Shown here: positions 16,508 through 59,615 of the stretch, one piece after another
Layout: every line of letters begins with the position of its first letter
How positions within the stretch are numbered: the first letter of the stretch is position 1
NCBI GenBank assembly: GCA_964354805.1
Contig: CAYHBD010000030.1
Span: forward strand, 1-64,000
Reading direction: 5' to 3'
Origin: an uncultured archaeon
Lineage (GTDB): Archaea; Iainarchaeota; Iainarchaeia; Iainarchaeales; GCA-2688035
Length of the DNA stretch: 64,000 nt
Program-made: the position numbers and the translations under genes
The notes under the pieces: model-generated
Databases searched by the model: none
What the model was told of the DNA's origin: nothing
Seen by the model: the letters and a program-made list of their open reading frames with translations, nothing else

Positions 16508-17467
16508 TCAGCTTCTTGCAATTGAGGCGATTTCTTCAAGGCTTTGCGCTTTCTCAAACAGGCGCATTTTTTCTGGGTTCGATGCAAAAAACCTGACTGC
16601 CTGTGTCTTCATCCTGCCCAAATAAGCGCTGATGCCGAACTTTTTGCACAATTCAAGGTATTGCAGGAAAGCCTGCTCCCTGGACAGGAGGTTTGCGCCA
16701 TCAGGCGCGCTTTTCCCAAGGCTTTTTTCCAGCGGGAAAAAAGGCTTGTTGCCCAGAATTTCCGCAAAAATTCCGGGATTGCCTATTGCCGCACTGCCAA
16801 CCATTGCAGCATCACAGCCGGTCTTTTCAAGCATTCGCTCAAAGCTAGGCTTGTTGATTACACCGCCATTCCCTATTACAGGAATGCCAACAGCTTTCTT
16901 GACGCGCTTTATTGCCACAAAGTCAACCAGGCCCCTGTTTTCCTGCTTAATGGTTCGCCCATGCACAGCAATTGCCGAAGCGCCCGCTCTTTCAATCTGC
17001 TTTGCCAGCTTGATTGTGCGCAAAACATTAGGGTCAGACCTTATTTTTGCAGTAACAGGCTTTCCAAGGACATGCCAGCAGGAAATGATTTCGCAAATTC
17101 GCGCAGGCCTCCTCAAAAGCGCGACGCCTGCCCCCTGGTTAAGCACATTACCCGAAGGGCATCCCAGGTTCAAATCCAAAAAATCGAATTCCTTTTCAGC
17201 AATAAGCAGTTCAACCGCCTTTTTCATGCTTTCAACCCTTGCCCCAAAAACCTGCATTGCCAAAGGCCTGTCCTCACCGCAGGTCTGGGCAAGCCTTTTG
17301 ACAGAAAGATTGTTCCTTATAAGGGCCTCAGAATTAATCATTTCCGAATAGCACAAGGAAGCGCCCTGCTCCCTGGCCAAAAGCCTGAAGGCAAGGTCAG
17401 TAACCCTGTACATTGGCGCCAAAACAAGCCTGTTTTCCATTTTTGTGCCGGCAATGCTGAAATCCAT
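16508..17467 (-). CDS. dus: tRNA-dihydrouridine synthase (Dus family)
   Basis: LAPM, DLNLGCP, VHGRT, IGNGG; carries a repeat insertion at 16695-16747. Confidence 0.92.
   Translation of the reverse strand: MDFSIAGTKMENRLVLAPMYRVTDLAFRLLAREQGASLCYSEMINSEALIRNNLSVKRLAQTCGEDRPLAMQVFGARVESMKKAVELLIAEKEFDFLDLNLGCPSGNVLNQGAGVALLRRPARICEIISCWHVLGKPVTAKIRSDPNVLRTIKLAKQIERAGASAIAVHGRTIKQENRGLVDFVAIKRVKKAVGIPVIGNGGVINKPSFERMLEKTGCDAAMVGSAAIGNPGIFAEILGNKPFFPLEKSLGKSAPDGANLLSREQAFLQYLELCKKFGISAYLGRMKTQAVRFFASNPEKMRLFEKAQSLEEIASIARS
16695..16747 (+). repeat. Palindromic repeat family copy, antisense inside dus
   Basis: TTTTCCCAAGGCTTTTTTCC-AGCG-GGAAAAAAGGCTT. Confidence 0.8.
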
Positions 17468-17630
17468 TACAAAAACAATACAGAAAAAGACTATATTCCA
17501 ATGCCCTAATGCACAGGCTTTTGCCGGAAAGCAGTGAAAAACAAAGGCAAAACCCCAAGCCATCTTCGCTCAGCTTTTAATAAAAGCCGGCAAAAACAGC
17601 CTCGCTTTGCTCGGCGAGCTCGATGGAATA

Positions 17631-17745
17631 AGCCCCGGGAGGGATTTGAACCCTCGACCCCCGGCTATCTCGAATTTTTCTTTTCGCACGCCTTTTTCTA
17701 AAAGGCTTTTACGAGGTCGGTGCTCTACCACTGAGCTACCAGGGC
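17631..17745 (-). tRNA. tRNA-Thr(CGT) with a 43-nt intron at 37/38 (17667-17709)
   Basis: Cloverleaf GCCCTGG...GGTTCAAATCC; BHB-like junction with CTCG/CGAG helix and TAA/ATA bulges; 72-nt mature; CCA not encoded. Confidence 0.92.
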
Positions 17746-17812
17746 GCTTCTTTTCTTTAAAGAAAATTGAATGCAAAACGCTTTTTAATCCCTTTTCCTT
17801 AATTGGTGTAGA

Positions 17813-18745
17813 ATGCCCAAGGATGACCAGCAAAAGGTTGAAGTTTTTCTGCGCGAATTTGTTTCAACTCTTACTGAACAACACGCAAAAGAAATTGATT
17901 TTATTCTTCTTTTCGGCAGCGCTGCAAGAGGCGAATTTGTTCTGGGAAAAAGCGATGTGGATTTAATAATCCAAGTGAAAAGCGATGAAAAAAGAAAAGA
18001 GGTTGAAGCGTTTGCCGAAAAGGTTTTCTGGCAGCTTGACAGAAAGCACGGCATGCAGCTAAAGCGCGTTTGTAGCACCGGCATTGGGGCAAGCGTTTTG
18101 GAGAATGCAGTTAAAGCGCTTGAAGCCCGGGCGCGGTTGTACAAGCCATTTGAGGTTTTTGGCCCAAAAGACATTGACTGGCGCAGAGGCATGATTAAAA
18201 GGCTTGACTTGCTGCCGGGCGCTTTTCTGGTTGCAAGCCAGCTGACGCTTTTGTACAAAATGAAGAATGAGGGAAAAATTTTATTCGGCAGGGATATTAG
18301 AAAGGAAATAAGGCCGAGGTTCACGCTTTGGGAGAAGCTGAAAAGCCTTTTTGTTCCCCAAAGCATTTCTTTTGCAGCACTGGCACTTTCGCTTTTCTTG
18401 CCAAAAAAAGCAGTTGCTTATGCCGTAAAAGCAATTTTTTATGAGGTTGAATCAGTGAACCTTTTCCTGCAGAACAAAATACCGAAAAAAGGAAAGGCCT
18501 GCTTTTTTGCAAGGGCAACCGAATTCAGAGACCGGTTATTGGATGATCTGCGGTTCTACATTGAACTGCGTTTTGGTTTGCTTGGCGAACAAAAGCTTGC
18601 TTTTGTAAAAAAGGCTGCCGCAGTTAAAAAGAACGGCTTTCAGGGGGGCAGGGTTGCCGCACTGCGCTTTTGCTTTAATGCATTTTGGGTCATTTACAAC
18701 TGCAATTCAAACATTATCCTGAAAACAATTTTTGCAATTGCCTGA
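17813..18745 (+). CDS. Pol-beta-type nucleotidyltransferase domain protein with helical C-terminus
   Basis: LLFGSAARG...SDVDL. Confidence 0.8.
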   Translation: MPKDDQQKVEVFLREFVSTLTEQHAKEIDFILLFGSAARGEFVLGKSDVDLIIQVKSDEKRKEVEAFAEKVFWQLDRKHGMQLKRVCSTGIGASVLENAVKALEARARLYKPFEVFGPKDIDWRRGMIKRLDLLPGAFLVASQLTLLYKMKNEGKILFGRDIRKEIRPRFTLWEKLKSLFVPQSISFAALALSLFLPKKAVAYAVKAIFYEVESVNLFLQNKIPKKGKACFFARATEFRDRLLDDLRFYIELRFGLLGEQKLAFVKKAAAVKKNGFQGGRVAALRFCFNAFWVIYNCNSNIILKTIFAIA

Positions 18746-18803
18746 AAAACCCCTAACAAAATGTTTAAATATTAGAAACCCGTTCTTTTATCAGGTGATT
18801 TAA

Positions 18804-19316
18804 TTGAACCAGAGCGGACAGGCTTATAGTGTCTTCAAGTTGCTGATTGCCGCAATCATTGCAGTAGCAATCCTTTACATACTTATTTCAATAATCGGCG
18901 GAATCAATATTTTCGGCAGCGATGTTCAAACCGTTGCAAAGCAAATCATTCAAAAGCAGGTTGACATGCCTGGCCAGCTGGACACAAGCACAGCAGCCGT
19001 TTTCAAAGCAGGAACAAACCTGGCGCCAAGCGCACTGGTTGGAAACAGCGGCCTGACCCCAGACCAGATTTGCCTGTATAAGGGTGACCTGGTTGACAAC
19101 CAAGCAGTGGAAGTTACAGGTAGCACACTAATGCAAAACGGGACAACTGATTTAACAGTGAAAATAAGCGTCATGTGCCACAAGGCAAACGCTTTAGTGG
19201 ATGCCCTTGAAGAAGTAGGATTGCCGATTGATTTTGGCGACACAACCACCGGAACTTGTGGATGCAACCTTGATACGCCCCAGAAATGCTGCGTGGTAAT
19301 GCTGAGATTTGCTTAA
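18804..19316 (+). CDS. Pilin-like protein with class III signal peptide
   Basis: MNQSG|QAYSVFKLLIAAII; SD AGGTGA; Cys-rich C-terminus. Confidence 0.75.
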   Translation: MNQSGQAYSVFKLLIAAIIAVAILYILISIIGGINIFGSDVQTVAKQIIQKQVDMPGQLDTSTAAVFKAGTNLAPSALVGNSGLTPDQICLYKGDLVDNQAVEVTGSTLMQNGTTDLTVKISVMCHKANALVDALEEVGLPIDFGDTTTGTCGCNLDTPQKCCVVMLRFA

Positions 19317-19547
19317 GCCCTTCTTTTTCTTTCTTTTTTTTCATTTTTGCTGTTATTGGCTTATCCAAGCTTGTAAGCCAATTAAATTTTCCTGCAATTT
19401 CTTAACTTTGAATACAAAACAATTAGTTTCAATTTACATTCAAAAAAATCGCATTAATAATTTCAATTTTTCAATTAAATGCCATTTAAGCGAAAACCCG
19501 CCTATCCAAAAAAATTAAATATAGCTTTTACCACAATTATTCTTATT

Positions 19548-19721
19548 ATGTTGGCAGTTGTTAAACGGGCGCTCGGCGAGAGGAGGGCTCAGAGTGAGTG
19601 GAGCAGCGTTTACATGCTGATTGTTTTAATTATCGCTGCCCTTCTTTTGATTGCGGTAATAAAGCCGATGTTCAAGCAAAGCCAGAGCATTGTGCAGAAA
19701 ACACAGCCGAAAGCAAGTTAA
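19548..19721 (+). CDS. Small pilin-like protein with class III signal peptide
   Basis: ERRA|QSEWSSVYMLIVLIIAALLL. Confidence 0.65.
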   Translation: MLAVVKRALGERRAQSEWSSVYMLIVLIIAALLLIAVIKPMFKQSQSIVQKTQPKAS

Positions 19722-19838
19722 AGAGCCCGAGGAAAAGGAATCCTTGGGAAAAAAAATTAAAAGGTGCAACTAAAATGCCGAACACAACACTGGCAAAGAG
19801 TGCCCAGGACCCAAAATGAATAATAAAGGTGCAAAGAA

Positions 19839-20660
19839 ATGCTGAACAGAAAAGGCCTTGCGAAGCAATTTTCCCAAAGCTTTTTTTCCGAAGGAAAAAA
19901 AGGCTTAGCAAAGCAATTTTTCCCAGGGGTTTTTTGCACGCGAAGCAATTTTCCCATCTTGCAAAACCCAAGGTTTTGCGAGACCTCGCAAAAGCGAAGC
20001 TTTTGCAAGGAGGCTTTTTTTGCAACGGCAAAAAAAGGCTTAAGCGAAAAAGGCCGAGCTGAAAGCCGTTTTCCCTGGGATTTTTTTGCAACAGCAAAAA
20101 AAGGCCAGGAGAGCGCGCCATTTGAGCTGCTGGTTGCTGTAATAATAATGGGCTTTGTCATATTCATTGGAACAAGTGTAATGCAGCAGGTAAATTGCGA
20201 GAAATGCAAGGGCGAAACCAATGCAAAGCTGGATCGAATGGCAACCGCGTTACAGAATGCTGACGAATCAGGCAGTATTCAACCAAACGTAAGTTTTTTT
20301 TTAAGCGGCTGCTTCAACCAACAGGAAGAAAAAATCTGGATTGAGGACGAAGACGATCCCCAAGTGTGTGCTGCCTATCATTGCGGTGAGAAGCAGTTAT
20401 GCACTTTGCTGAAATACTATGGTAATGGCTGCGGCGGGTTCAGCATCATAAAGTGCCTGGATATCACCCCTGACGCCGATTTTCCTTCCATATCAGGGGG
20501 CAGGTGCGAAGAAAGAGATGGAATGCAATTAGTGGATTTCGAGAAAAGGGAGGAGCCGATAGCAACAGGGGGCAACAAGCAGGGCAACTATTTGCTGTGG
20601 AACAAGACAGGGCAGGGCGACACTTTTTCAACAATCTGCGCTTACAGGAAAGAGGGTTGA
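19839..20660 (+). CDS. Pilin-like protein; signal peptide expanded by an 83-codon repeat insertion
   Basis: MLNRKG-[insert ending KKG]-QESAPFELLVAVII; Cys-rich domain. Confidence 0.8.
   Translation: MLNRKGLAKQFSQSFFSEGKKGLAKQFFPGVFCTRSNFPILQNPRFCETSQKRSFCKEAFFATAKKGLSEKGRAESRFPWDFFATAKKGQESAPFELLVAVIIMGFVIFIGTSVMQQVNCEKCKGETNAKLDRMATALQNADESGSIQPNVSFFLSGCFNQQEEKIWIEDEDDPQVCAAYHCGEKQLCTLLKYYGNGCGGFSIIKCLDITPDADFPSISGGRCEERDGMQLVDFEKREEPIATGGNKQGNYLLWNKTGQGDTFSTICAYRKEG
19857..20105 (+). repeat. Composite array of palindromic repeat units (249 nt, in frame)
   Basis: Several GCGAAGCAATTTTCCC and T-run/loop/A-run-GGC hairpins; AAAAGGCC at both junctions. Confidence 0.88.
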
Positions 20661-20667
20661 TTCAACC

Positions 20668-21330
20668 ATGCTTGGATTCACTTTAAGCAAACTGAATCTG
20701 CTGATTTTGGTGACAGCCTTGTTTGGGATAATTGCATTCTTTTTATTTACGCTAACAGACATGATGGTTGCCAGGTCGGCACAGCAAATGGTCAATGACC
20801 TTGTTGAAAGAACCAGCGGCATTATGACACCGAGCGTTGACTGCTTTGAGGAAACGGTTACAATACCAGAGGAAATAACCTACTTCAGCGGAAAACGCTT
20901 CTATTACGTAATGAAGATATCAAGGGAGCCGGCTGAATACAACTCGGAATATCTAAGCAAATTGATTTTCAAGGTTGCGGCAAGAAAAGAGCAAACCAAA
21001 TTCATTGCAACAAATAGCTATGACATGAATGCAGAAATCATGCTTTACCAATGGCCTGTTGCAGAAATTAGAACTAACCTAAAAGAGCAAAGCAGCATTA
21101 TACTTGATCCAATGAACGAAACTACTGCAAGCAATTCAGTTAAGTTAATAAAAGAGGTTTATAATAGAAAAAATTTCCTGCACGTAATTGCCTGCAATAC
21201 CGACCAAGGGCAGTGTGAAATGAATGAGGGTTATGCAGGCTGCTGCGTAAAAAAATGGAGGGGCGTTGAATCAAGCTGCCTGCCGCCTGCAGAGAATTGC
21301 GAAAACTTGAGCTGCGATACAAGGGGGTAA
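20668..21330 (+). CDS. Pilin-cluster membrane-anchored protein
   Basis: MLG-FTLSKLNLLILV N-terminal hydrophobic helix; Cys-rich tail. Confidence 0.7.
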   Translation: MLGFTLSKLNLLILVTALFGIIAFFLFTLTDMMVARSAQQMVNDLVERTSGIMTPSVDCFEETVTIPEEITYFSGKRFYYVMKISREPAEYNSEYLSKLIFKVAARKEQTKFIATNSYDMNAEIMLYQWPVAEIRTNLKEQSSIILDPMNETTASNSVKLIKEVYNRKNFLHVIACNTDQGQCEMNEGYAGCCVKKWRGVESSCLPPAENCENLSCDTRG

Positions 21331-21335
21331 AAAAA

Positions 21336-21836
21336 ATGAAAAACGGGGGTTTTTTGGGTCCAATTGGGGATGATTTGCCGAGCCTGATTCCGCTGCTTTT
21401 TGCTTTAATGCTTTTTTTTTATGCTTTTACATCTGCTTGGAATAATTTTGACAGGAGGAATGAGGATTTTGCCGATGACCTGGCAGTGCTCAGGGCAAGC
21501 AATGCATTGAGGGGAAACAATTATATTGCGGGAATTGAAAAATTCAATGAAAACTGCGAGACAGCGAAAGGAACCCAGAGAATGCACTTTTTGGCCGGAT
21601 TGCTGCCCTTGCCTACAGGGAAAGATGAGCAATTTGTTGGAATTGATACTGAAAAAATAGTCAGCGGCGATCAAAGCTTTTTTGAAGACTTTCAATGCAG
21701 CAGCACTGAGGAAATACCCGTGCTGGAAAGCGAAAAAAGCGTTGTTAGGTTCTTTCCTGTTGCCTTGGAAACAAAAGAGGAAAACGACAAGTTTTATGTA
21801 AAGCCGATGTTGCTGGTGGTCATTGCATGGAAATAA
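21336..21836 (+). CDS. Pilin-like protein
   Basis: MKNGG-FLGPIGDDLPSLIPLLF hydrophobic helix; ends ...VIAWK. Confidence 0.7.
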   Translation: MKNGGFLGPIGDDLPSLIPLLFALMLFFYAFTSAWNNFDRRNEDFADDLAVLRASNALRGNNYIAGIEKFNENCETAKGTQRMHFLAGLLPLPTGKDEQFVGIDTEKIVSGDQSFFEDFQCSSTEEIPVLESEKSVVRFFPVALETKEENDKFYVKPMLLVVIAWK

Positions 21837-22648
21837 AGCTTGGCGAAAAAGGTCCTGTTTTGCGAAGCCTATTTTCCCCAGGCTTTTGCAACAGCAAAAG
21901 GCTGTTGCGAAGCAAAACCCATTTCCCTGGGATTTTTTGCACGCGAAGCAATTTTCCCAAGGCTTTTTCACGAAGTGAAAAAGGCTTAAGCGAAAAAGGC
22001 CAGTCCAGTTTGACTGATTCCATGTTTTTCCTGGTAATAGCCAGCATTTTGAGCACTTGGCTTTTCTATTCAAGCGCAACCTACGGCCTGACAATAGACC
22101 AGCAAATTTCAAGGCAGGGCAGGGAGGAATACACCAAGTCTGCGCTTGAAACAATTTTGTACAGCAGCGCGCCGAGGCAGGCAGGCCTTTCTTTGGAAGA
22201 AGCATCAGAGATTGACTACCTGCTTGCGGCAATAAAAGAGGACTACGCTGATGACACTGAACTGGATGAAACAAAAGCAATTCTTTTCCAGAACATAAAT
22301 GCCGTAATGCAGCCGCTTGCAACAAACAGCAACTACCTTTTCTACATATATATTGCTCAAAAAAATAAATTTGTTGTCACTTTTTTGTACGCAAGCGAAG
22401 CAAAAAACGATGACGGCTGGAGCTTAACCGGCAACAAAATTGTTTTTTCCTGCGTGCCGCCAAGCAAGCAGGCAGTGGAAGAATTCCTGCTTACGGTTGG
22501 CAGGATGTCTGTCAGCAACAGCAGAATTCAGCTGCTTGAATCAAAAGAGCCGGCTCCTGACAGATACGATGCCCTAATCACTTTAATCACTTGGATTCCA
22601 ACGCCAGTTGATGAAAGCGACCTAAACTGCACTAAATTCACTGGCTGA
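21827..22648 (+). CDS. Pilin-like protein; signal peptide expanded by a 49-codon repeat insertion
   Basis: MEIKLGEKG-[insert ending EKG]-QSSLTDSMFFLVI. Confidence 0.8.
   Translation: MEIKLGEKGPVLRSLFSPGFCNSKRLLRSKTHFPGIFCTRSNFPKAFSRSEKGLSEKGQSSLTDSMFFLVIASILSTWLFYSSATYGLTIDQQISRQGREEYTKSALETILYSSAPRQAGLSLEEASEIDYLLAAIKEDYADDTELDETKAILFQNINAVMQPLATNSNYLFYIYIAQKNKFVVTFLYASEAKNDDGWSLTGNKIVFSCVPPSKQAVEEFLLTVGRMSVSNSRIQLLESKEPAPDRYDALITLITWIPTPVDESDLNCTKFTG
21854..22000 (+). repeat. Composite array of palindromic repeat units (147 nt, in frame)
   Basis: Three GCGAAGC motifs and two GGCTTTT...AAAAGGC hairpins; GCGAAAAAGG at both junctions. Confidence 0.88.
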
Positions 22649-23345
22649 ATTTTTTCCCGCAATCAGGACAGACTACTGTTTCAATGCTGCCAATCCTTTC
22701 AACCTTCTTCGCGCAAGAATAACAAAAAGCTGTTCCGCACTCAGGGCAGAAAACCACTTTGCTTGCAGGCTTTGCGCATTTCGGGCACTGCTGTTCCGCT
22801 TCACCAAGATCGCCCAAACTGAATTCTTCACCTTCTTCCTTCTGCACTACACTCTGCGCTCCCTTCTTTTCCTCTGCAAAAATATCCTCAACACTCAAAG
22901 AAGCGAGTTCTTTAGCTTTATCACCCTGCGATTGCCCGGCAATTTGCTTATCCGCTTCTTCAAATTCAGACCATTCCTTTTCATCGCCCTCCGCTGTCTC
23001 CTTTTTCCCTTCCACGGATTCCCTGCCTCTTCTCCTTTCAATCTGTTTGCTGGCCTGCTCCCTTACATCTTTGTCCTTTAATTGCTGGAAAATGTTTTCT
23101 GCAATCTGGTCGTACTCGGCTTTTTCAGGGTATCTTTTGTGCTCTTCCCTGAATTTCCTCACTTCCTGCAAAGTCAAATGCATTGTCACATCCTTATCAG
23201 CCGCCTGTTTAGGCTGATCTTTTGGCATCTGTTCAAACAAATAGTCGGCAACGCCGCCAACTTCCTTTTCGGCTGCCAAACCACCCTTTTGTTCAGCACC
23301 CTGCCTGTAAAAGCGCTTCATCCTTCTCGGAATTTCCTCAGCCAT
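22638..23345 (-). CDS. Hypothetical charged protein with C-terminal multi-CxxC zinc ribbons
   Basis: CPKC, CPECG...CYSC, CPDCG. Confidence 0.75.
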   Translation of the reverse strand: MAEEIPRRMKRFYRQGAEQKGGLAAEKEVGGVADYLFEQMPKDQPKQAADKDVTMHLTLQEVRKFREEHKRYPEKAEYDQIAENIFQQLKDKDVREQASKQIERRRGRESVEGKKETAEGDEKEWSEFEEADKQIAGQSQGDKAKELASLSVEDIFAEEKKGAQSVVQKEEGEEFSLGDLGEAEQQCPKCAKPASKVVFCPECGTAFCYSCAKKVERIGSIETVVCPDCGKKFSQ

Positions 23346-23409
23346 AAAAAAACAACCTGCTTTGCTAAAATTCTTTTCCAACCCAAAAAATGCTTCTTTT
23401 TTTCCCGAT

Positions 23410-24897
23410 TTAAAATTTTTCCTTTCCCGCCTCAAGTTTCCATAACAGTAATGGCAATTCCCCTATTTTAACCCTCTTCTGTTGCATTGAATCGCGCTCC
23501 CTGAGCGTAACAGCATCATCTTTCATTGAATCATAATCAACCGTAACAGCGAACGGAACGCCAACCTCGTCAACCCTTGCATACCTTTTTCCAATGCTTC
23601 CTTTCTCATCAAAGAAAACATCCAAGCTGAAAGAATTCAGTTCATTAAAAATTTGCTTTGCTTTCGCATCCAATCCATCTTTGCTCACCAATGGAAAAAC
23701 AGCGCAAAGATGAGGCGCAATGGCAGGGGGCAGCCTAAGGTAAATCCTTTCTTCAGGGCCTCTTTTCTCTTTCCTGAAAGCATTGTCCAAAACAACGTAA
23801 AAAGCCCTGTCAATTCCAGCCGACAGCTCAAAAACATGCGGGATGAATTCTTTGCCGTCCTCTTTTACCGCCAGTTTCTGCTTGCTCTGCTTTTGGTGCC
23901 CTGCCAAATCAAAATCAGTCCTGTAATTGCATGCAACCAGCTCAATCCAGCCCAAGTCTGTTTCCACTTCAAAATCCCATGTTTCCCTTGCATAAAAGGC
24001 CCTTTCATCCTTGCCAAGCTGCCTGAAACGCATTTTTCCAACAGCAATCCCAAAAGCCTCGTACAACTGCTGCAGCCTGGTCAAATAGTACGCAACCAGC
24101 TTGCCTGAAACAATTTTTTTTCCAACAGCATCCTTGCAGGAAACAGCATTAACCTTTTCCTTTCCAAACAAAAGCAAATTCAATTTATAGTTCTCCACTT
24201 CCTTAAAATTTTCCACTTCATTTATCTTTTCAGGGTTAAAGAACACTTCAATCTCCATTTGCCCTATTTCCCTCTCCCTGAGCAAAGTGTTTCTCGGGGC
24301 AATCTCGTTCCGAAAGCTGGCGCCTGCCTGCGCAATCGCCAAGGGCAGAGTCTGCCTAGCTGTTTTGTACAGCCTTTGGAAATCGCAAAAAATGCTCTGG
24401 CAGGTTTCAGGCCTAAGGTAAGCAGCCTGCTTTCCTGTTGCGCCTATGTCCACTTTCATCATCATGTTGAATTTTTTCACTTCACTAAAATCCTTGCCCC
24501 CGCACTTCGGGCACTTTACAGCGTGCTTTTCAATCAGCTTGTCCAGTTCGCTTGTTGCAAGGCTTTCCGGAACAATTCCCTCAACTTTTTCCGCAATCAG
24601 CTTGTCAGCCCTGTGCAGTGAATTGCATTTCCTGCACTGCACAATTGGATCGTTAAAGTTTTCAATGTGCCCGCTTGCTTTGAACACTTCTTCAGGCAGA
24701 ATCTGCGAACCGAATATTTCAACCATTCCTTCCTTTTCAACCAGCTGCTTTCTCCACAAATCAATAATTTTTCTCCTGATTGTTTCCCCTTCCAAAGCGA
24801 AATCAAAAAAGCCTGAGGCAGCGCTGCTGTATATTTCGGCAGCCGGGAAAAACAAGCCCCTCCGCAGAGCCAGATTAACCAATTCATCCTTTGGCAT
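23410..24897 (-). CDS. glyS: Glycyl-tRNA synthetase (alpha2 type)
   Basis: ASGH...F.D, YLRPETCQ, FRNEIAPR, IGKRYARVDEVG. Confidence 0.96.
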   Translation of the reverse strand: MPKDELVNLALRRGLFFPAAEIYSSAASGFFDFALEGETIRRKIIDLWRKQLVEKEGMVEIFGSQILPEEVFKASGHIENFNDPIVQCRKCNSLHRADKLIAEKVEGIVPESLATSELDKLIEKHAVKCPKCGGKDFSEVKKFNMMMKVDIGATGKQAAYLRPETCQSIFCDFQRLYKTARQTLPLAIAQAGASFRNEIAPRNTLLREREIGQMEIEVFFNPEKINEVENFKEVENYKLNLLLFGKEKVNAVSCKDAVGKKIVSGKLVAYYLTRLQQLYEAFGIAVGKMRFRQLGKDERAFYARETWDFEVETDLGWIELVACNYRTDFDLAGHQKQSKQKLAVKEDGKEFIPHVFELSAGIDRAFYVVLDNAFRKEKRGPEERIYLRLPPAIAPHLCAVFPLVSKDGLDAKAKQIFNELNSFSLDVFFDEKGSIGKRYARVDEVGVPFAVTVDYDSMKDDAVTLRERDSMQQKRVKIGELPLLLWKLEAGKEKF

Positions 24898-25001
24898 AAT
24901 TAACTAAAATAATGGATTAAGTGTTTTAATAAATTGCTGTTTTTGCCATTAAGGCTGATTTTCGCAATTTCCGCTTCTTGATTAATCTTTTAAATTATTG
25001 A

Positions 25002-25826
25002 TTGTCTAATGTTATAACTATGCAGGACAGATTGCAGCAATTGAGGCAAAAGCTTATTCAAAAAGCCAAAAAGCAGGTTCAAATCAAGTATGCTGAAAGC
25101 GATGTGCACATAATCAGGGCAGTAAGCGCTTTGCAGGATTTGGATGCTTCTTTCAACCTGCTTGCGGAGAACTGCATTGAGTGGTACGGCGCACATTTCC
25201 CAGAATTGCAGCAGCAGCTGCGCAACAACGAATTGTGCCTGCAGCTGATTTGCTCACTCGGAGAGAGAAAAAATTTCAGCGAAAAAAAGCTTGTGGAAAT
25301 AGTCAAGGAAAAGGAAAAGGTCAACGGCATTATGGCTGCCGCGGGAAAAAGCATGGGCAGCGATGTAAAACCTGATGTTTTGAGCGCATTGAAAGAGCTT
25401 GCAGAAAACTCATTGAACCTGAAAAAAGAAAGGGTGGCATTGGAGAAAATGATTGAAAAAGAAATGAGCGCATATGCCCCGAACACTGCCCTGCTTGCTG
25501 GGCCTGTTCTTGCTGCAAGGCTGCTTGCGGCAGCAGGCGGACTGCGGCAGCTTGCATTAATGCCTGCAAGCACGATTCAACTGCTTGGGGCGGAGAAGGC
25601 ATTGTTCCTGCATTTGAGGAACCCGAAAATCAAGGGCCCGAAGTACGGTTTCCTGTACCAGCACGCTCTGGTGAGGAGTGTACAGCCAAAGCACAAGGGA
25701 AAGGTTGCGAGAAGCGTTGCAGCAAAGCTTGCGATTTCAGCAAAAGTTGATTTTTTTGGCTCAAAGGAAAAAATCGCCGAAAAAATGCTGCTTGAACTGA
25801 AAGAGAAAATAAAAAAATTGCATTAG
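25002..25826 (+). CDS. nop5: C/D box RNP protein Nop5 (short form)
   Basis: EWYGAHFPEL, PASTIQLLGAEKALF, PKYG. Confidence 0.93.
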   Translation: MSNVITMQDRLQQLRQKLIQKAKKQVQIKYAESDVHIIRAVSALQDLDASFNLLAENCIEWYGAHFPELQQQLRNNELCLQLICSLGERKNFSEKKLVEIVKEKEKVNGIMAAAGKSMGSDVKPDVLSALKELAENSLNLKKERVALEKMIEKEMSAYAPNTALLAGPVLAARLLAAAGGLRQLALMPASTIQLLGAEKALFLHLRNPKIKGPKYGFLYQHALVRSVQPKHKGKVARSVAAKLAISAKVDFFGSKEKIAEKMLLELKEKIKKLH

Positions 25827-25833
25827 GTGGATC

Positions 25834-26499
25834 TTGTTGCAGGAATTGTTTCCGGGTGTTTTCAGTGACGCAACAAGATTGTTTACTGCAAACGCAGTGC
25901 CAGGCACCAGGGTTTACGGCGAGCGTTTGGTGAAAGAAAGTGGGGTTGAATTCAGGCAGTGGGATGCTTTCAGGAGCAAGCTTGCTGCTGCAATAAAAAA
26001 CGGATTGAGTGAAATGCCGGTAAAGCCAGACAGCAATGTCCTTTACCTTGGCGCTGCTGAGGGAACAACAGTAAGCCATGTTGCTGACATTATTGGGGAG
26101 AAAGGCATTGCCTTTGGAGTTGATGTAAGCGAAAGGGTAATGAGAAAGTTCATTTTGATTTGCGAGCAGCGCAAGAACATTGTCCCGATTTTGGCTGATG
26201 CCGGCAATCCAAAAACATATGAGGAATACATTGAAGGAAAAAAAATCGATGTATTGTACCAGGATGTGAGCCAGAAAAACCAGGCTGAGATTTTCCTGAA
26301 AAACAGCGGGTGCTTTCTGCGCAAGGGAGCGCATGGCCTGCTTGCAATAAAGGCAAAAAGCATCAGCCAGCAAAAGCCTGTGAACGAAGTGTTTGAAAAT
26401 GAAATAAGCAAATTAAAAGAGCAATTCAATATAAAGCAGGTAATCAACCTCAAGCCATTTGAAAAAGACCATGTGATGGTGCTATGCGAAAAGAAATAA
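25834..26499 (+). CDS. flpA: Fibrillarin rRNA 2'-O-methyltransferase
   Basis: VYGE, RSKLAAAI, VLYLGAAEGTTVSHV, QDVSQ. Confidence 0.95.
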   Translation: MLQELFPGVFSDATRLFTANAVPGTRVYGERLVKESGVEFRQWDAFRSKLAAAIKNGLSEMPVKPDSNVLYLGAAEGTTVSHVADIIGEKGIAFGVDVSERVMRKFILICEQRKNIVPILADAGNPKTYEEYIEGKKIDVLYQDVSQKNQAEIFLKNSGCFLRKGAHGLLAIKAKSISQQKPVNEVFENEISKLKEQFNIKQVINLKPFEKDHVMVLCEKK

Positions 26500-27044
26500 G
26501 GCGGCAGTTCATTCACTTCTTCTTCGGCTCAATCTTCATTATATTGATTTTAATATTCGGGGTGCAGCAAACACTGCTTTTTTTGAGCGCCGTTTTCCTA
26601 ATAGGGCTGCTTTTCTCTTTCCTTCTCAAAAAAGGAATAAATGTCCCGTTGATCTGGCACGTTGTTAAAAAGGTTGAAAGGGACTACGAACAGCACCTGC
26701 CTGGCAAGGGAGCACTGCTGCTTGTTTTAAGCGCAATAATTGTAATGGCGTTATTCTTGCAAAACGAAAAAATTGTGCTTGGCGCACTGTGCGCTGTTGT
26801 TTACGGGGACAGCACCTCAACAGTGATTGGCATTGCAATAGGAAAGCACAAAATCCTTGGAAAAAGAACCTGGGAGGGAACGCTTGGCGGAATGCTGTTT
26901 GCATTCATCTTCCTGCAGCTGCTTTTCCCACTGCACATTGCCCTCATTACAGCAGCCGTTGGAATGGCAGCAGAGCTGCTGCCGTTTGACGACAACTTCA
27001 CAATTCCCATTGCGGCTGGTGTGGTGCTGGCGATTTTAATTTGA
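26484..27044 (+). CDS. Dolichol/phytol kinase-like membrane protein
   Basis: RRQFIH, GDSTSTVIG, KRTWEG, DDNFTIP. Confidence 0.85.
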   Translation: MRKEIRRQFIHFFFGSIFIILILIFGVQQTLLFLSAVFLIGLLFSFLLKKGINVPLIWHVVKKVERDYEQHLPGKGALLLVLSAIIVMALFLQNEKIVLGALCAVVYGDSTSTVIGIAIGKHKILGKRTWEGTLGGMLFAFIFLQLLFPLHIALITAAVGMAAELLPFDDNFTIPIAAGVVLAILI

Positions 27045-27106
27045 TGCTTCCTATAGCCCTGCAGCAATTTATTATAAATTTTCCCTCACCCCATATTATT
27101 ATCCAT

Positions 27107-27279
27107 GGACCCATAGCCTAGTGGATAGGGCAACTAAAGAGGTGAGTTTTTCAATTCTCTCTTTTGCAAGCCTCCTAAAGCCTTTTCTTTAGAAAAGAAA
27201 AGGCTTGCGAAAAGAAATTTTTCGCTCTGCAAAAAACGGGGCTAGCAGTAGGTCGTGGGTTCGATTCCCACTGGGTCCG
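27107..27279 (+). tRNA. tRNA-Arg(CCT) with two introns: 34 nt at 29/30 (27136-27169) and 66 nt at 37/38 (27178-27243)
   Basis: Removing both restores the ACTGC/GCAGT stem and a 73-nt cloverleaf; strict BHB (GCAA/TTGC, CTA/AAG) for intron 1; CTCC/GGGG helix with TAA/CTA for intron 2. Confidence 0.9.
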
Positions 27280-28667: not shown

Positions 28668-29402
28668 CTAAATCCTGAGCGCGAATGTTTCCCTCTTTTT
28701 CTGTTTCCCTGTCCTGTCAACTCCAATCAGCTTGAATGTTTTCGTTGCATCTGTTTTGAATTCTTTTTCCAGCTGCTTTACAGCCAAGGCAGCTGCTTTT
28801 TTTGATCCGACTATTGCATCGATTGAGTTTTTTTTCTGTGTTGCGGAAACAATTGCGGCCAGACCGTCTCTTTTTTGCAGGGATGCGAGCAATTGCCTCA
28901 GCCTGTTGAAAGCAGCAGCTGCTTTTTCCCCCCTAAGCTGCACTATTGCCTCAAAGTAATTGCTTTTCAGCTTCATGCAAGCATCGCACTGCATTGCGGG
29001 AAAAGAGATTGTTGTTTTCCTTTCAACCAGAACAGGCGTGTTTTCAATTACGCCCTTTGCCGTTACGATTGCCTGCATTTCCTTTTCACTCAACCGCTGC
29101 AATTCAACTGACAGGGCAGCATCTGTCAGCTCCTTAACCTTGCATTTTTTTTTGACGAACTGCTTCAATAGTTCCAAGTCAAAAGCGTGCATTTTCCCTG
29201 AAAGCAAAATTTTTCCGCATTGCTTGCAGCGCTGCAACTCGATTTTTTCAGGCAACTGCAGAAGCGTGTGCTCTTTCAGGAAGCACTGGAGGCAGCTGCC
29301 CCTTACAAAAAGGCTGTCTGTTGCACCGCAGCTCGGGCAAAATAATCTGCCCAAAGCCTTTTTGCCTTTTGGCAAAAAGCCTTGGGAAAAGTTGCTTCGC
29401 AT
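28668..29402 (-). CDS. nmd3: NMD3 family protein
   Basis: FCPSCG...CLQC, CKQCG, CDAC...YFEAIVQLR. Confidence 0.88.
   Translation of the reverse strand: MRSNFSQGFLPKGKKALGRLFCPSCGATDSLFVRGSCLQCFLKEHTLLQLPEKIELQRCKQCGKILLSGKMHAFDLELLKQFVKKKCKVKELTDAALSVELQRLSEKEMQAIVTAKGVIENTPVLVERKTTISFPAMQCDACMKLKSNYFEAIVQLRGEKAAAAFNRLRQLLASLQKRDGLAAIVSATQKKNSIDAIVGSKKAAALAVKQLEKEFKTDATKTFKLIGVDRTGKQKKRETFALRI
29354..29400 (-). repeat. Palindromic repeat family copy at the 5' end of NMD3
   Basis: GCGAAGCAACTTTTCCCAAGGCTTTTTGCC-AAAA-GGCAAAAAGGCTT. Confidence 0.85.
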
Positions 29403-29406
29403 CCCA

Positions 29407-59507: not shown

Positions 59508-59615
59508 GCAAAGCAATTGCCCTTTCCCCCATAATGCCAAGCTAAAGAATTATTTGTTTTTGTTCCATTGCTTGGCATTATGCCAAGGCTTTTTTCCCGC
59601 AGGAAAAAAGGCTTA
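59508..59615 (+). repeat. Intergenic palindromic repeat family copy with an extra internal hairpin
   Basis: GCAAAGCAATT..TTTCCCC-[CATAATGCCAAGC...GCTTGGCATTATG]-CCAAGGCTTTTTTCC-CGCA-GGAAAAAAGGCTTA. Confidence 0.82.

Follow-up and report, generated by a model that had tools for sequence, protein, structure and literature searches.

A mobile hairpin repeat at the 5' end of tRNA introns in DPANN archaea, with evidence favouring spread at the DNA level

The window analysed here, a stretch of 64,000 nucleotides (nt) of contig C30 (CAYHBD010000030.1, positions 1 to 64,000) in a 1.38-Mb metagenome-assembled genome (MAG) of an uncultured Iainarchaeota archaeon (assembly GCA_964354805.1, 88.5% complete; hereafter G000), encodes a tRNA-Thr(CGU) and a tRNA-Arg(CCU) whose introns at the canonical position 37/38 begin with a hairpin repeat of ~35-55 bases that is dispersed through the genomes of tiny DPANN archaea (Table 1; G### denotes genomes, L### contigs or loci, X1-X6 metagenome runs and C# contigs of G000). 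The two tRNA genes are separated by genes for a nucleotidyltransferase, pilin-like open reading frames (ORFs), a glycyl-tRNA synthetase (GlyRS, recognised by motifs), Nop5 and fibrillarin. Long introns conceal such tRNAs from standard annotation: ARAGORN by default, with no intron option, reported 0 tRNA genes in the window, its relaxed run returned chiefly noise, and Rfam matches number 29 in G016 as against 43 in G004. The Thr-Arg pair is nothing special within its genome, being two of ~17 repeat-led introns in G000.

The repeat unit consists of AAGCC, a T-run, a loop, an A-run, GCC or GGC, and a 3' box of the form TTG(G/C)GAAAA; in most cases a second, small hairpin comes next. A strict structural finder recovered 90 units in 81 clusters in G000, 13 of these in tRNA introns, and a single unit in the reversed-genome control; 75 of the 90 units lie outside tRNA genes, and the commonest 12-mers of the genome come from this one repeat. 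On the strand that matches the introns, the stem carries a C.C mismatch in 77 of the 90 units. An earlier reading of the window, made from the sequence only, held that the two introns echo the repeat with its G.G mismatch replaced by a C-G pair; the C-G-closed stem is indeed there, but that reading had quoted the opposite strand, and the C-G-closed, GCGAAAA-ending form also occurs outside tRNA genes, in intergenic DNA and in ORFs (C9:151144, C46:11857, C42:38426). It is thus a subfamily and no adaptation to introns.

The intron openings quoted in the sequence-only reading proved exact, and its concern that A/T runs might produce the likeness by chance was addressed with a hidden Markov model (HMM) trained on the 75 non-tRNA copies only. 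Against this model Arg intron 2 scored 32.8 bits (shuffle mean 9.5, maximum 22.9; 0 of 2000 shuffles as high) and the Thr intron 15.6 bits (shuffle mean 5.0; 3 of 2000 as high), so the introns did score better than their shuffles, whereas Arg intron 1 reached 1.0 bit, with 182 of 200 shuffles as good, and seven other introns likewise scored no better than shuffles. Among 41,008 background windows three attained 32.8 bits, all of them missed repeat copies, and 28 attained 15.6 bits, mostly recognisable copies or fragments; the Thr intron alone is therefore the weaker case. The best non-tRNA matches agree in 25 of 28 columns for Thr and 35 of 38 for Arg, and the reverse-strand scores are 8.9 and 21.5 bits, respectively. 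The likeness also extends well beyond this pair: at least 26 introns of G000 lie at 37/38, and 14-17 of them begin with the element (17 by eye; 13 clear to the HMM; Gly, Glu and His borderline; Pro(GGG) with a stem too long for the model). Each of the 17 units is in sense orientation and begins within 0-3 nt of the 5' splice site, and several introns contain two or three units. Chance or convergence of A/T-rich hairpins at bulge-helix-bulge (BHB) introns, to which the A/T-run composition and the 15.6 bits of Thr by itself might point, is exceedingly improbable in view of the scores against shuffles and genome background, of fixed flanks common to 17 introns and several phyla, and of the existence of empty alleles.

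The repeat is mobile, as seen from a copy in the Dus gene and arrays in ORF leaders whose presence or length varies among strains (Table 1), and from its load among genomes. The core 14-mer, which misses the AAACC/GGTTT subfamily common in G011, is found 65 times in G000, 160 times in G016, 1-15 times in six GTDB congeners of G016 and, for the most part, 0-2 times in other families; copy number rises in bursts, and in genomes with few copies the majority lie outside introns. The element is also found in MAGs of Micrarchaeota, Aenigmatarchaeota and Altiarchaeota, often at tRNA genes, where its hot spots are the D-loop, the anticodon loop, the T-loop and the 3' end. Some copies follow tRNA 3' ends, stop codons are supplied in 6 cases, and copies within ORFs are oriented with the frame in 17 cases and against it in 10, by a rough ORF caller. 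In Micrarchaeota (L251, L237) the element occurs as a T-loop intron of tRNA genes.

The history of Arg intron 2 can be followed in relatives, a comparison that the sequence-only reading had proposed and in which intron presence varies at both genes. The metagenome contig L372 has identical Arg exons, 89% identity in the flanks, intron 1, and a repeat-free intron 2 of 15 nt, ~51 nt shorter than that of G000, whose G-rich 3' end aligns with the end of the G000 intron. G012 has a 15-nt repeat-free Arg(CCU) intron with a similar G-rich 3' end, a strain-level contig of X6 (by its equal depth probably the long record with ~93% identity) carries a 17-nt intron at 37/38 and lacks intron 1, the Arg introns of G009 and G005 are short too, and L371 has intron 1 only. 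Across relatives, Arg(CCU) thus occurs without a 37/38 intron, with a short one and with a repeat intron. Because a relative with identical exons has a repeat-free intron with a similar 3' end, Arg intron 2 very likely represents the element invading a pre-existing ~15-nt intron at its 5' junction. Pro(UGG) offers the same picture, the 18-nt intron of G013 ending like the G000 tail.

At Thr(CGU), a gene mostly syntenic with GlyRS across the family, 16 family genomes are intron-less and five have repeat-led introns (G000, G006, G009, G012 and G016, the last in two genes), which use different subfamilies. No repeat-free Thr(CGU) intron was found within the family; short ones were met in three of 196 genomes searched, all three in other families, by a pattern search of partial sensitivity (of the positive controls, G000 and G006 were recovered and G012 was missed). 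A metagenome scan for the Thr exon gave no match. G016 has at least 17 repeat-led introns, whereas the repeat is in none of the long tRNA matches of its congener G004. This contrast, together with the Thr(CGU) census, favours gain driven by the element, and we lean slightly towards the Thr intron having been created by it. The suggestion that the repeat invaded or seeded the introns is thus supported as invasion at Arg, while seeding at Thr is plausible and unproven. Weighing against gain is a single-gene GlyRS tree that needs five changes of the Thr intron, gives no polarity of gain or loss and splits the genus of G016, so that repeated loss may also account for the pattern; repeat load is associated with presence of the Thr intron at p=0.08, for genomes that are not independent and with the incomplete 14-mer. 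Repeat-led introns also occur in duplicated tRNA genes, namely Ser(GGA) in G088 (L150, L151) and Thr(CGU) in G016 (L039, L112).

Footprints of insertion are found at the junctions of copies outside introns. Direct repeats of at least 12 bp abut the 5' end of the element exactly at 17 of 144 non-intron copies (pooled set), as against 0 of 800 permuted pairs; most measure 15-28 bp, one is a 60-bp tandem, and G016 carries the single-copy allele of one duplicated site. About 11 of the duplications copy a tRNA end, in sense the initial 15-17 nt as far as the D-loop and in antisense the 3' end to T54, and on both strands the junction falls in the first loop past the base of the acceptor stem. At these tRNA-end duplications the 3' box is succeeded by a short and imperfect copy of the local target in inverted orientation (13 cases), and this copy is target-specific (within-class permutation p ~5e-5); over all dispersed copies in G000 there was no enrichment of inverted flanks, the signal being confined to the tRNA-end duplications. 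At least 10 copies lie antisense in T-loops. Matches of at least 9 nt to intron tails number 3 in dispersed copies, with 7.9 expected, which is not above chance; a match to the Asp tail on C42, at the end of a gene, is no more than chance would give. On the intron strand the loops of the second hairpin read T..C in 41 cases and G..A in 4, the other strand presenting cGNA or cGNNAg mini-hairpins, and two dispersed copies fold better as DNA on the strand opposite the intron strand. Such mini-hairpins are exceptionally stable in single-stranded DNA. Since intron tails are missing from dispersed copies, T-loop copies occur in antisense, and target duplications come with inverted target copies, these junctions favour insertion of DNA over reverse splicing.

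We consider it most probable, at about two chances in three, that this small hairpin of DPANN archaea is a non-autonomous mobile element which spreads as DNA and prefers the loops of tRNA genes. The element would attach at a nick within one loop of the cloverleaf formed by single-stranded tRNA-gene DNA, and fold-back and re-annealing synthesis would close the gap. Insertions at tRNA ends would persist since the duplication restores the gene intact, those at 37/38 only if spliced out by EndA and RtcB, and 37/38 introns would then be tolerated landing sites that gather further units. The 4-bp BHB helix of the Thr intron could stem from a templated inverted copy or from later selection. A bolder version, possible if doubtful, is that of a DPANN-wide mini-element whose insertion chemistry writes the inverted target copy and at 37/38 thereby makes its own BHB helix, yielding a new spliceable intron in one step through an enzyme outside the known classes of REP-associated tyrosine transposase (RAYT; REP, repetitive extragenic palindromic), DDE transposase, Cas1 and reverse transcriptase; if true, this would be a mechanism of de novo intron gain, and the Thr(CGU) intron an instance of it.

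Several observations weigh against DNA-level spread. About 88% of copies lack a target duplication, and 4 of the 13 inverted-copy cases were chosen by eye. The search for an enzyme in the 23 genomes of the family, MAGs 61-93% complete, gave no candidate: Y1 transposases, at 27 loci in 12 of the genomes, are never flanked by the repeat on both sides and have at most one copy nearby, and casposons are among tRNA-targeting integrative elements, but their Cas1-like integrase (PF01867) was found in 0 of 23 genomes, as was the reverse transcriptase (PF00078, RVT_1) of a retroelement. IS110 and IS1595, the two families of insertion sequence searched for, were not found in G000. The exact position of the units at the 5' splice site, also where the intron existed beforehand, would fit RNA-level ligation at the EndA cut as well, and one subfamily is enriched among intron units (13 of 17 versus 16 of 75, p=3e-5, by a rough classification), so copying from intron to intron probably contributes. 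RNA ligation and intron-to-intron copying after a first entry can both coexist with DNA-level spread of the element. The presence of Y1 transposases does not follow repeat load, and the two of G000, considered as mobilisers, were set aside as ordinary IS200-like genes with ends of their own. A divergent group of Y1 transposases with its own hairpin ends and no flanking repeat is present in G016, G013 and G004 (L307, L311, L319). No repeat lies near Xer or integrase loci (six integrase loci inspected). A viral vector was rejected, IMG/VR giving 0 matches to the full element and 50 to the 16-mer box without a convincing hairpin.

A route on which one or a few introns were entered and then spread among tRNA genes by transposition or gene conversion, as in Thermoproteales, with tails adapting to the host, would account for the subfamily bias, for the fact that Arg intron 2 is nearer the introns of Asp, Ser(CGA), Cys and Leu(CAG) than that of Thr, for AAATT-type tails in several isotypes and like Ser(GGA) tails in two genera, and for the location of intron 1, which G000 and G012 have in Arg(CCU) and G001 in Arg(UCU); it has a precedent in Fujishima 2010 (summarised in PMC4090602). 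We nevertheless hold it unlikely: Arg intron 2 retains the tail of its own short ancestor, introns and protein genes have composite modules in common (the Leu(CAG) intron and a copy on C8), the TT of the tails is accounted for by h' pairing with the AA of the element, and most copies, being outside tRNA genes, are left unexplained. Less probable still is that the introns are the source of the repeat, as the sequence-only reading had also proposed, whether the RNA that was reverse-transcribed and inserted consisted of introns, excised or circular, or of element RNA that RtcB had ligated to cleaved 5' pieces of tRNA. The sense orientation of 17 of 17 intron copies at the 5' cut, sense copies after tRNA 3' ends and variable 15-28-bp duplications resembling those of target-primed reverse transcription would all agree with such an RNA route; it is disfavoured by the antisense T-loop insertions and the two orientations of copies in protein genes, by the deficit of intron tails, by the absence of RVT_1 from these incomplete MAGs and by low-copy genomes whose copies lie mostly outside introns.

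Splicing of the repeat-led introns is very probable, because no Cys, His or Asp tRNA gene other than those containing them was found in the assembly. The BHB central helix, formed over 4 bp with positions 32-35 between two 3-nt bulges, has four Watson-Crick pairs in Thr and three plus one G.U in Arg intron 2; the intron-side helix h' has 2 bp in Thr and none in Arg intron 2, and at least 2 bp of it are kept in 11 of 17 repeat introns. G000 encodes both EndA and RtcB. Its EndA is a single alpha4-sized gene that aligns without gaps to M. jannaschii 1a79 and has no obvious insert, and the alpha4 type reportedly favours strict BHB motifs (PMC5829648). Such a preference would be in tension with Arg intron 2, in which h' is missing and the stem of the element itself begins at the cut.

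Among known systems, the element can be set beside REP sequences, REPINs (hairpins made by two REPs) and bacterial interspersed mosaic elements (BIMEs), which are mobilised by RAYTs (PMC3116915, PMC3733652, PMC2817692) and which it resembles in having imperfect hairpins of 20-40 nt whose stem mismatch is conserved, copy numbers in the tens to hundreds, composites that may be tandem, nested or inverted, supplied stop codons and some in-frame ORF copies. It differs from them in ending in AAGCC and GGGAAAA without a terminal GTAG or CGTC tag (definition in PMC3733652), in having no repeat-flanked RAYT/Y1 gene, and in its target duplications, which are long and variable and accompanied by inverted copies of the target, its strong preference for tRNA loops and its archaeal host. 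Akin to the Rickettsia palindromic elements (Ogata 2000, listed in PMC3184786), it forms an in-frame palindrome in a conserved protein gene (Dus, net 54 bp, with an empty allele); it measures ~54 bp versus 105-146 bp, lacks the CGTC end (PMC3184786, PMC3733652) and has tRNA genes and their introns as its main hot spot. With the transposed BHB introns of Thermoproteales (Fujishima 2010, summarised in PMC4090602) it has in common related introns across isotypes, a proposed gain at the DNA level and the need of a BHB for survival; here only the 5' module is common, each host has its own tail and the majority of units are outside tRNA genes, so the intron is not the moving unit. Integrative elements that target tRNA genes through tyrosine-integrase att sites (Caldiarchaeum tRNA-Thr, PMC3293823) also duplicate a tRNA end (T54 to the 3' end) and leave the gene intact, but here the cargo is only 50-120 bp, no integrase is adjacent and there is no fixed attP; the duplicated piece varies by target and is therefore target-derived. 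A miniature inverted-repeat transposable element is not indicated either, the ends being asymmetric and duplications of 15-28 bp occurring at 12% of copies only, without a fixed length. A literature search in which coverage of subscription papers was thin returned no description of the element. How archaeal tRNA introns arrive has been called unknown (PMC4090602), and a 2026 Asgard census found no general route (bioRxiv 10.64898/2026.10.13.758758); the element offers a testable one, since a named donor sequence with empty and filled alleles, junction footprints and congeners 50-fold apart in load and strongly unlike in intron content make gain and invasion open to test.

Table 1. Genes, introns and repeat copies of the window (1-based positions)
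Feature	Position	Strand	Description
tRNA-Thr(CGU)	17631..17745	-	exon 1 17745-17710, exon 2 17666-17631; A30.C40 mismatch in anticodon stem
Thr(CGU) intron, 43 nt, canonical 37/38	17667..17709	-	hBHBh', central helix 4/4 Watson-Crick (CTCG/CGAG), 2-bp h'
Repeat unit in Thr intron, from intron nt 2	17682..17708	-	hairpin and GCGAAA box; C-G-closed, purine-loop subfamily
tRNA-Arg(CCU), three exons	27107..27279	+	27107-27135, 27170-27177 (8-nt middle exon), 27244-27279
Arg intron 1 at 29/30	27136..27169	+	strict BHB, no kinship to repeat
Arg intron 2, 66 nt, 37/38	27178..27243	+	central helix CTCC/GGGG (27238-27241); relaxed hBH, element stem from nt 1
Element within Arg intron 2	27178..27236	+	13-bp perfect hairpin, GCGAAAA box, second-module stretch
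Dispersed copy, in frame in Dus gene	16694..16747	-	empty allele net 54 bp shorter in X3, X6 contigs
Second palindrome type (CCATC...GATGG) with variant unit, just 3' of tRNA-Thr	17560..17627	+	
Repeat array, in frame, antisense, N-terminal leader of pilin-like ORF 19839-20660	19850..20110	-	shorter alleles in X3, X6
Repeat array in N-terminal leader of ORF 21827-22648	21852..21990	-	X6 allele 54 bp shorter
Dispersed copy, 5' end of NMD3 gene	29354..29405	+	joint skipping the copy in X1, X2, X6 contigs
Nested copies, one unit within another's loop	55200..55300	+	
Dispersed copy, variant 5' flank	59575..59615	-	

The arrays in the two ORF leaders extend, in frame, positively charged leaders resembling class III signal peptides, up to a KGQ-type cleavage motif. 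The palindrome beside tRNA-Thr has a near copy following another tRNA-like gene on C42 and belongs to a second family, with arms CCATC/GATGG or CCATT/AATGG and a GC-TTC-GC loop, that recurs beside tRNA 3' ends and often accompanies the main element within a target duplication (17560-17627; G000 C16:22900-23075; L069, L073, L104). The 3' box of the main element resembles the anticodon loops of Pro, Arg and His tRNAs, a very short likeness.

Other tRNA genes show oddities of their own. Arg intron 1 is patchy, being present in Arg(CCU) of G000, G012, L371 and L372, absent from the X6 contig, and in G001 found in Arg(UCU), where the BHB helix has a compensatory change. The opening 10 nt of intron 1 are identical to the final 10 nt of the short 37/38 intron of X6, as would follow from a circular permutation. 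The A30.C40 mismatch of Thr(CGU) and, just beyond the window, C33 in place of U33 in Val(GAC) (C30, 64785-64905) may reflect relaxed selection, error or C-to-U editing. The Asn (C10:32806-32966) and Phe (C18:1231-1338) tRNAs of G000 have apparent insertions or introns in the D-loop, with no kinship to the repeat. At C42:64937-65023 lies a tRNA-like gene, possibly an atypical tRNA, with a CUGAUAA loop and a long variable arm, whose orthologues have the loops CCAUGAC (G016), UUAUGAC (G004) and CUGAAAA (G013). A tRNA-Ile with a UAU anticodon (C42:32258-32377) contains a repeat-free 48-nt intron; the gene recurs in relatives, where some of its introns are repeat-filled and up to ~320 nt long (L057, L261).

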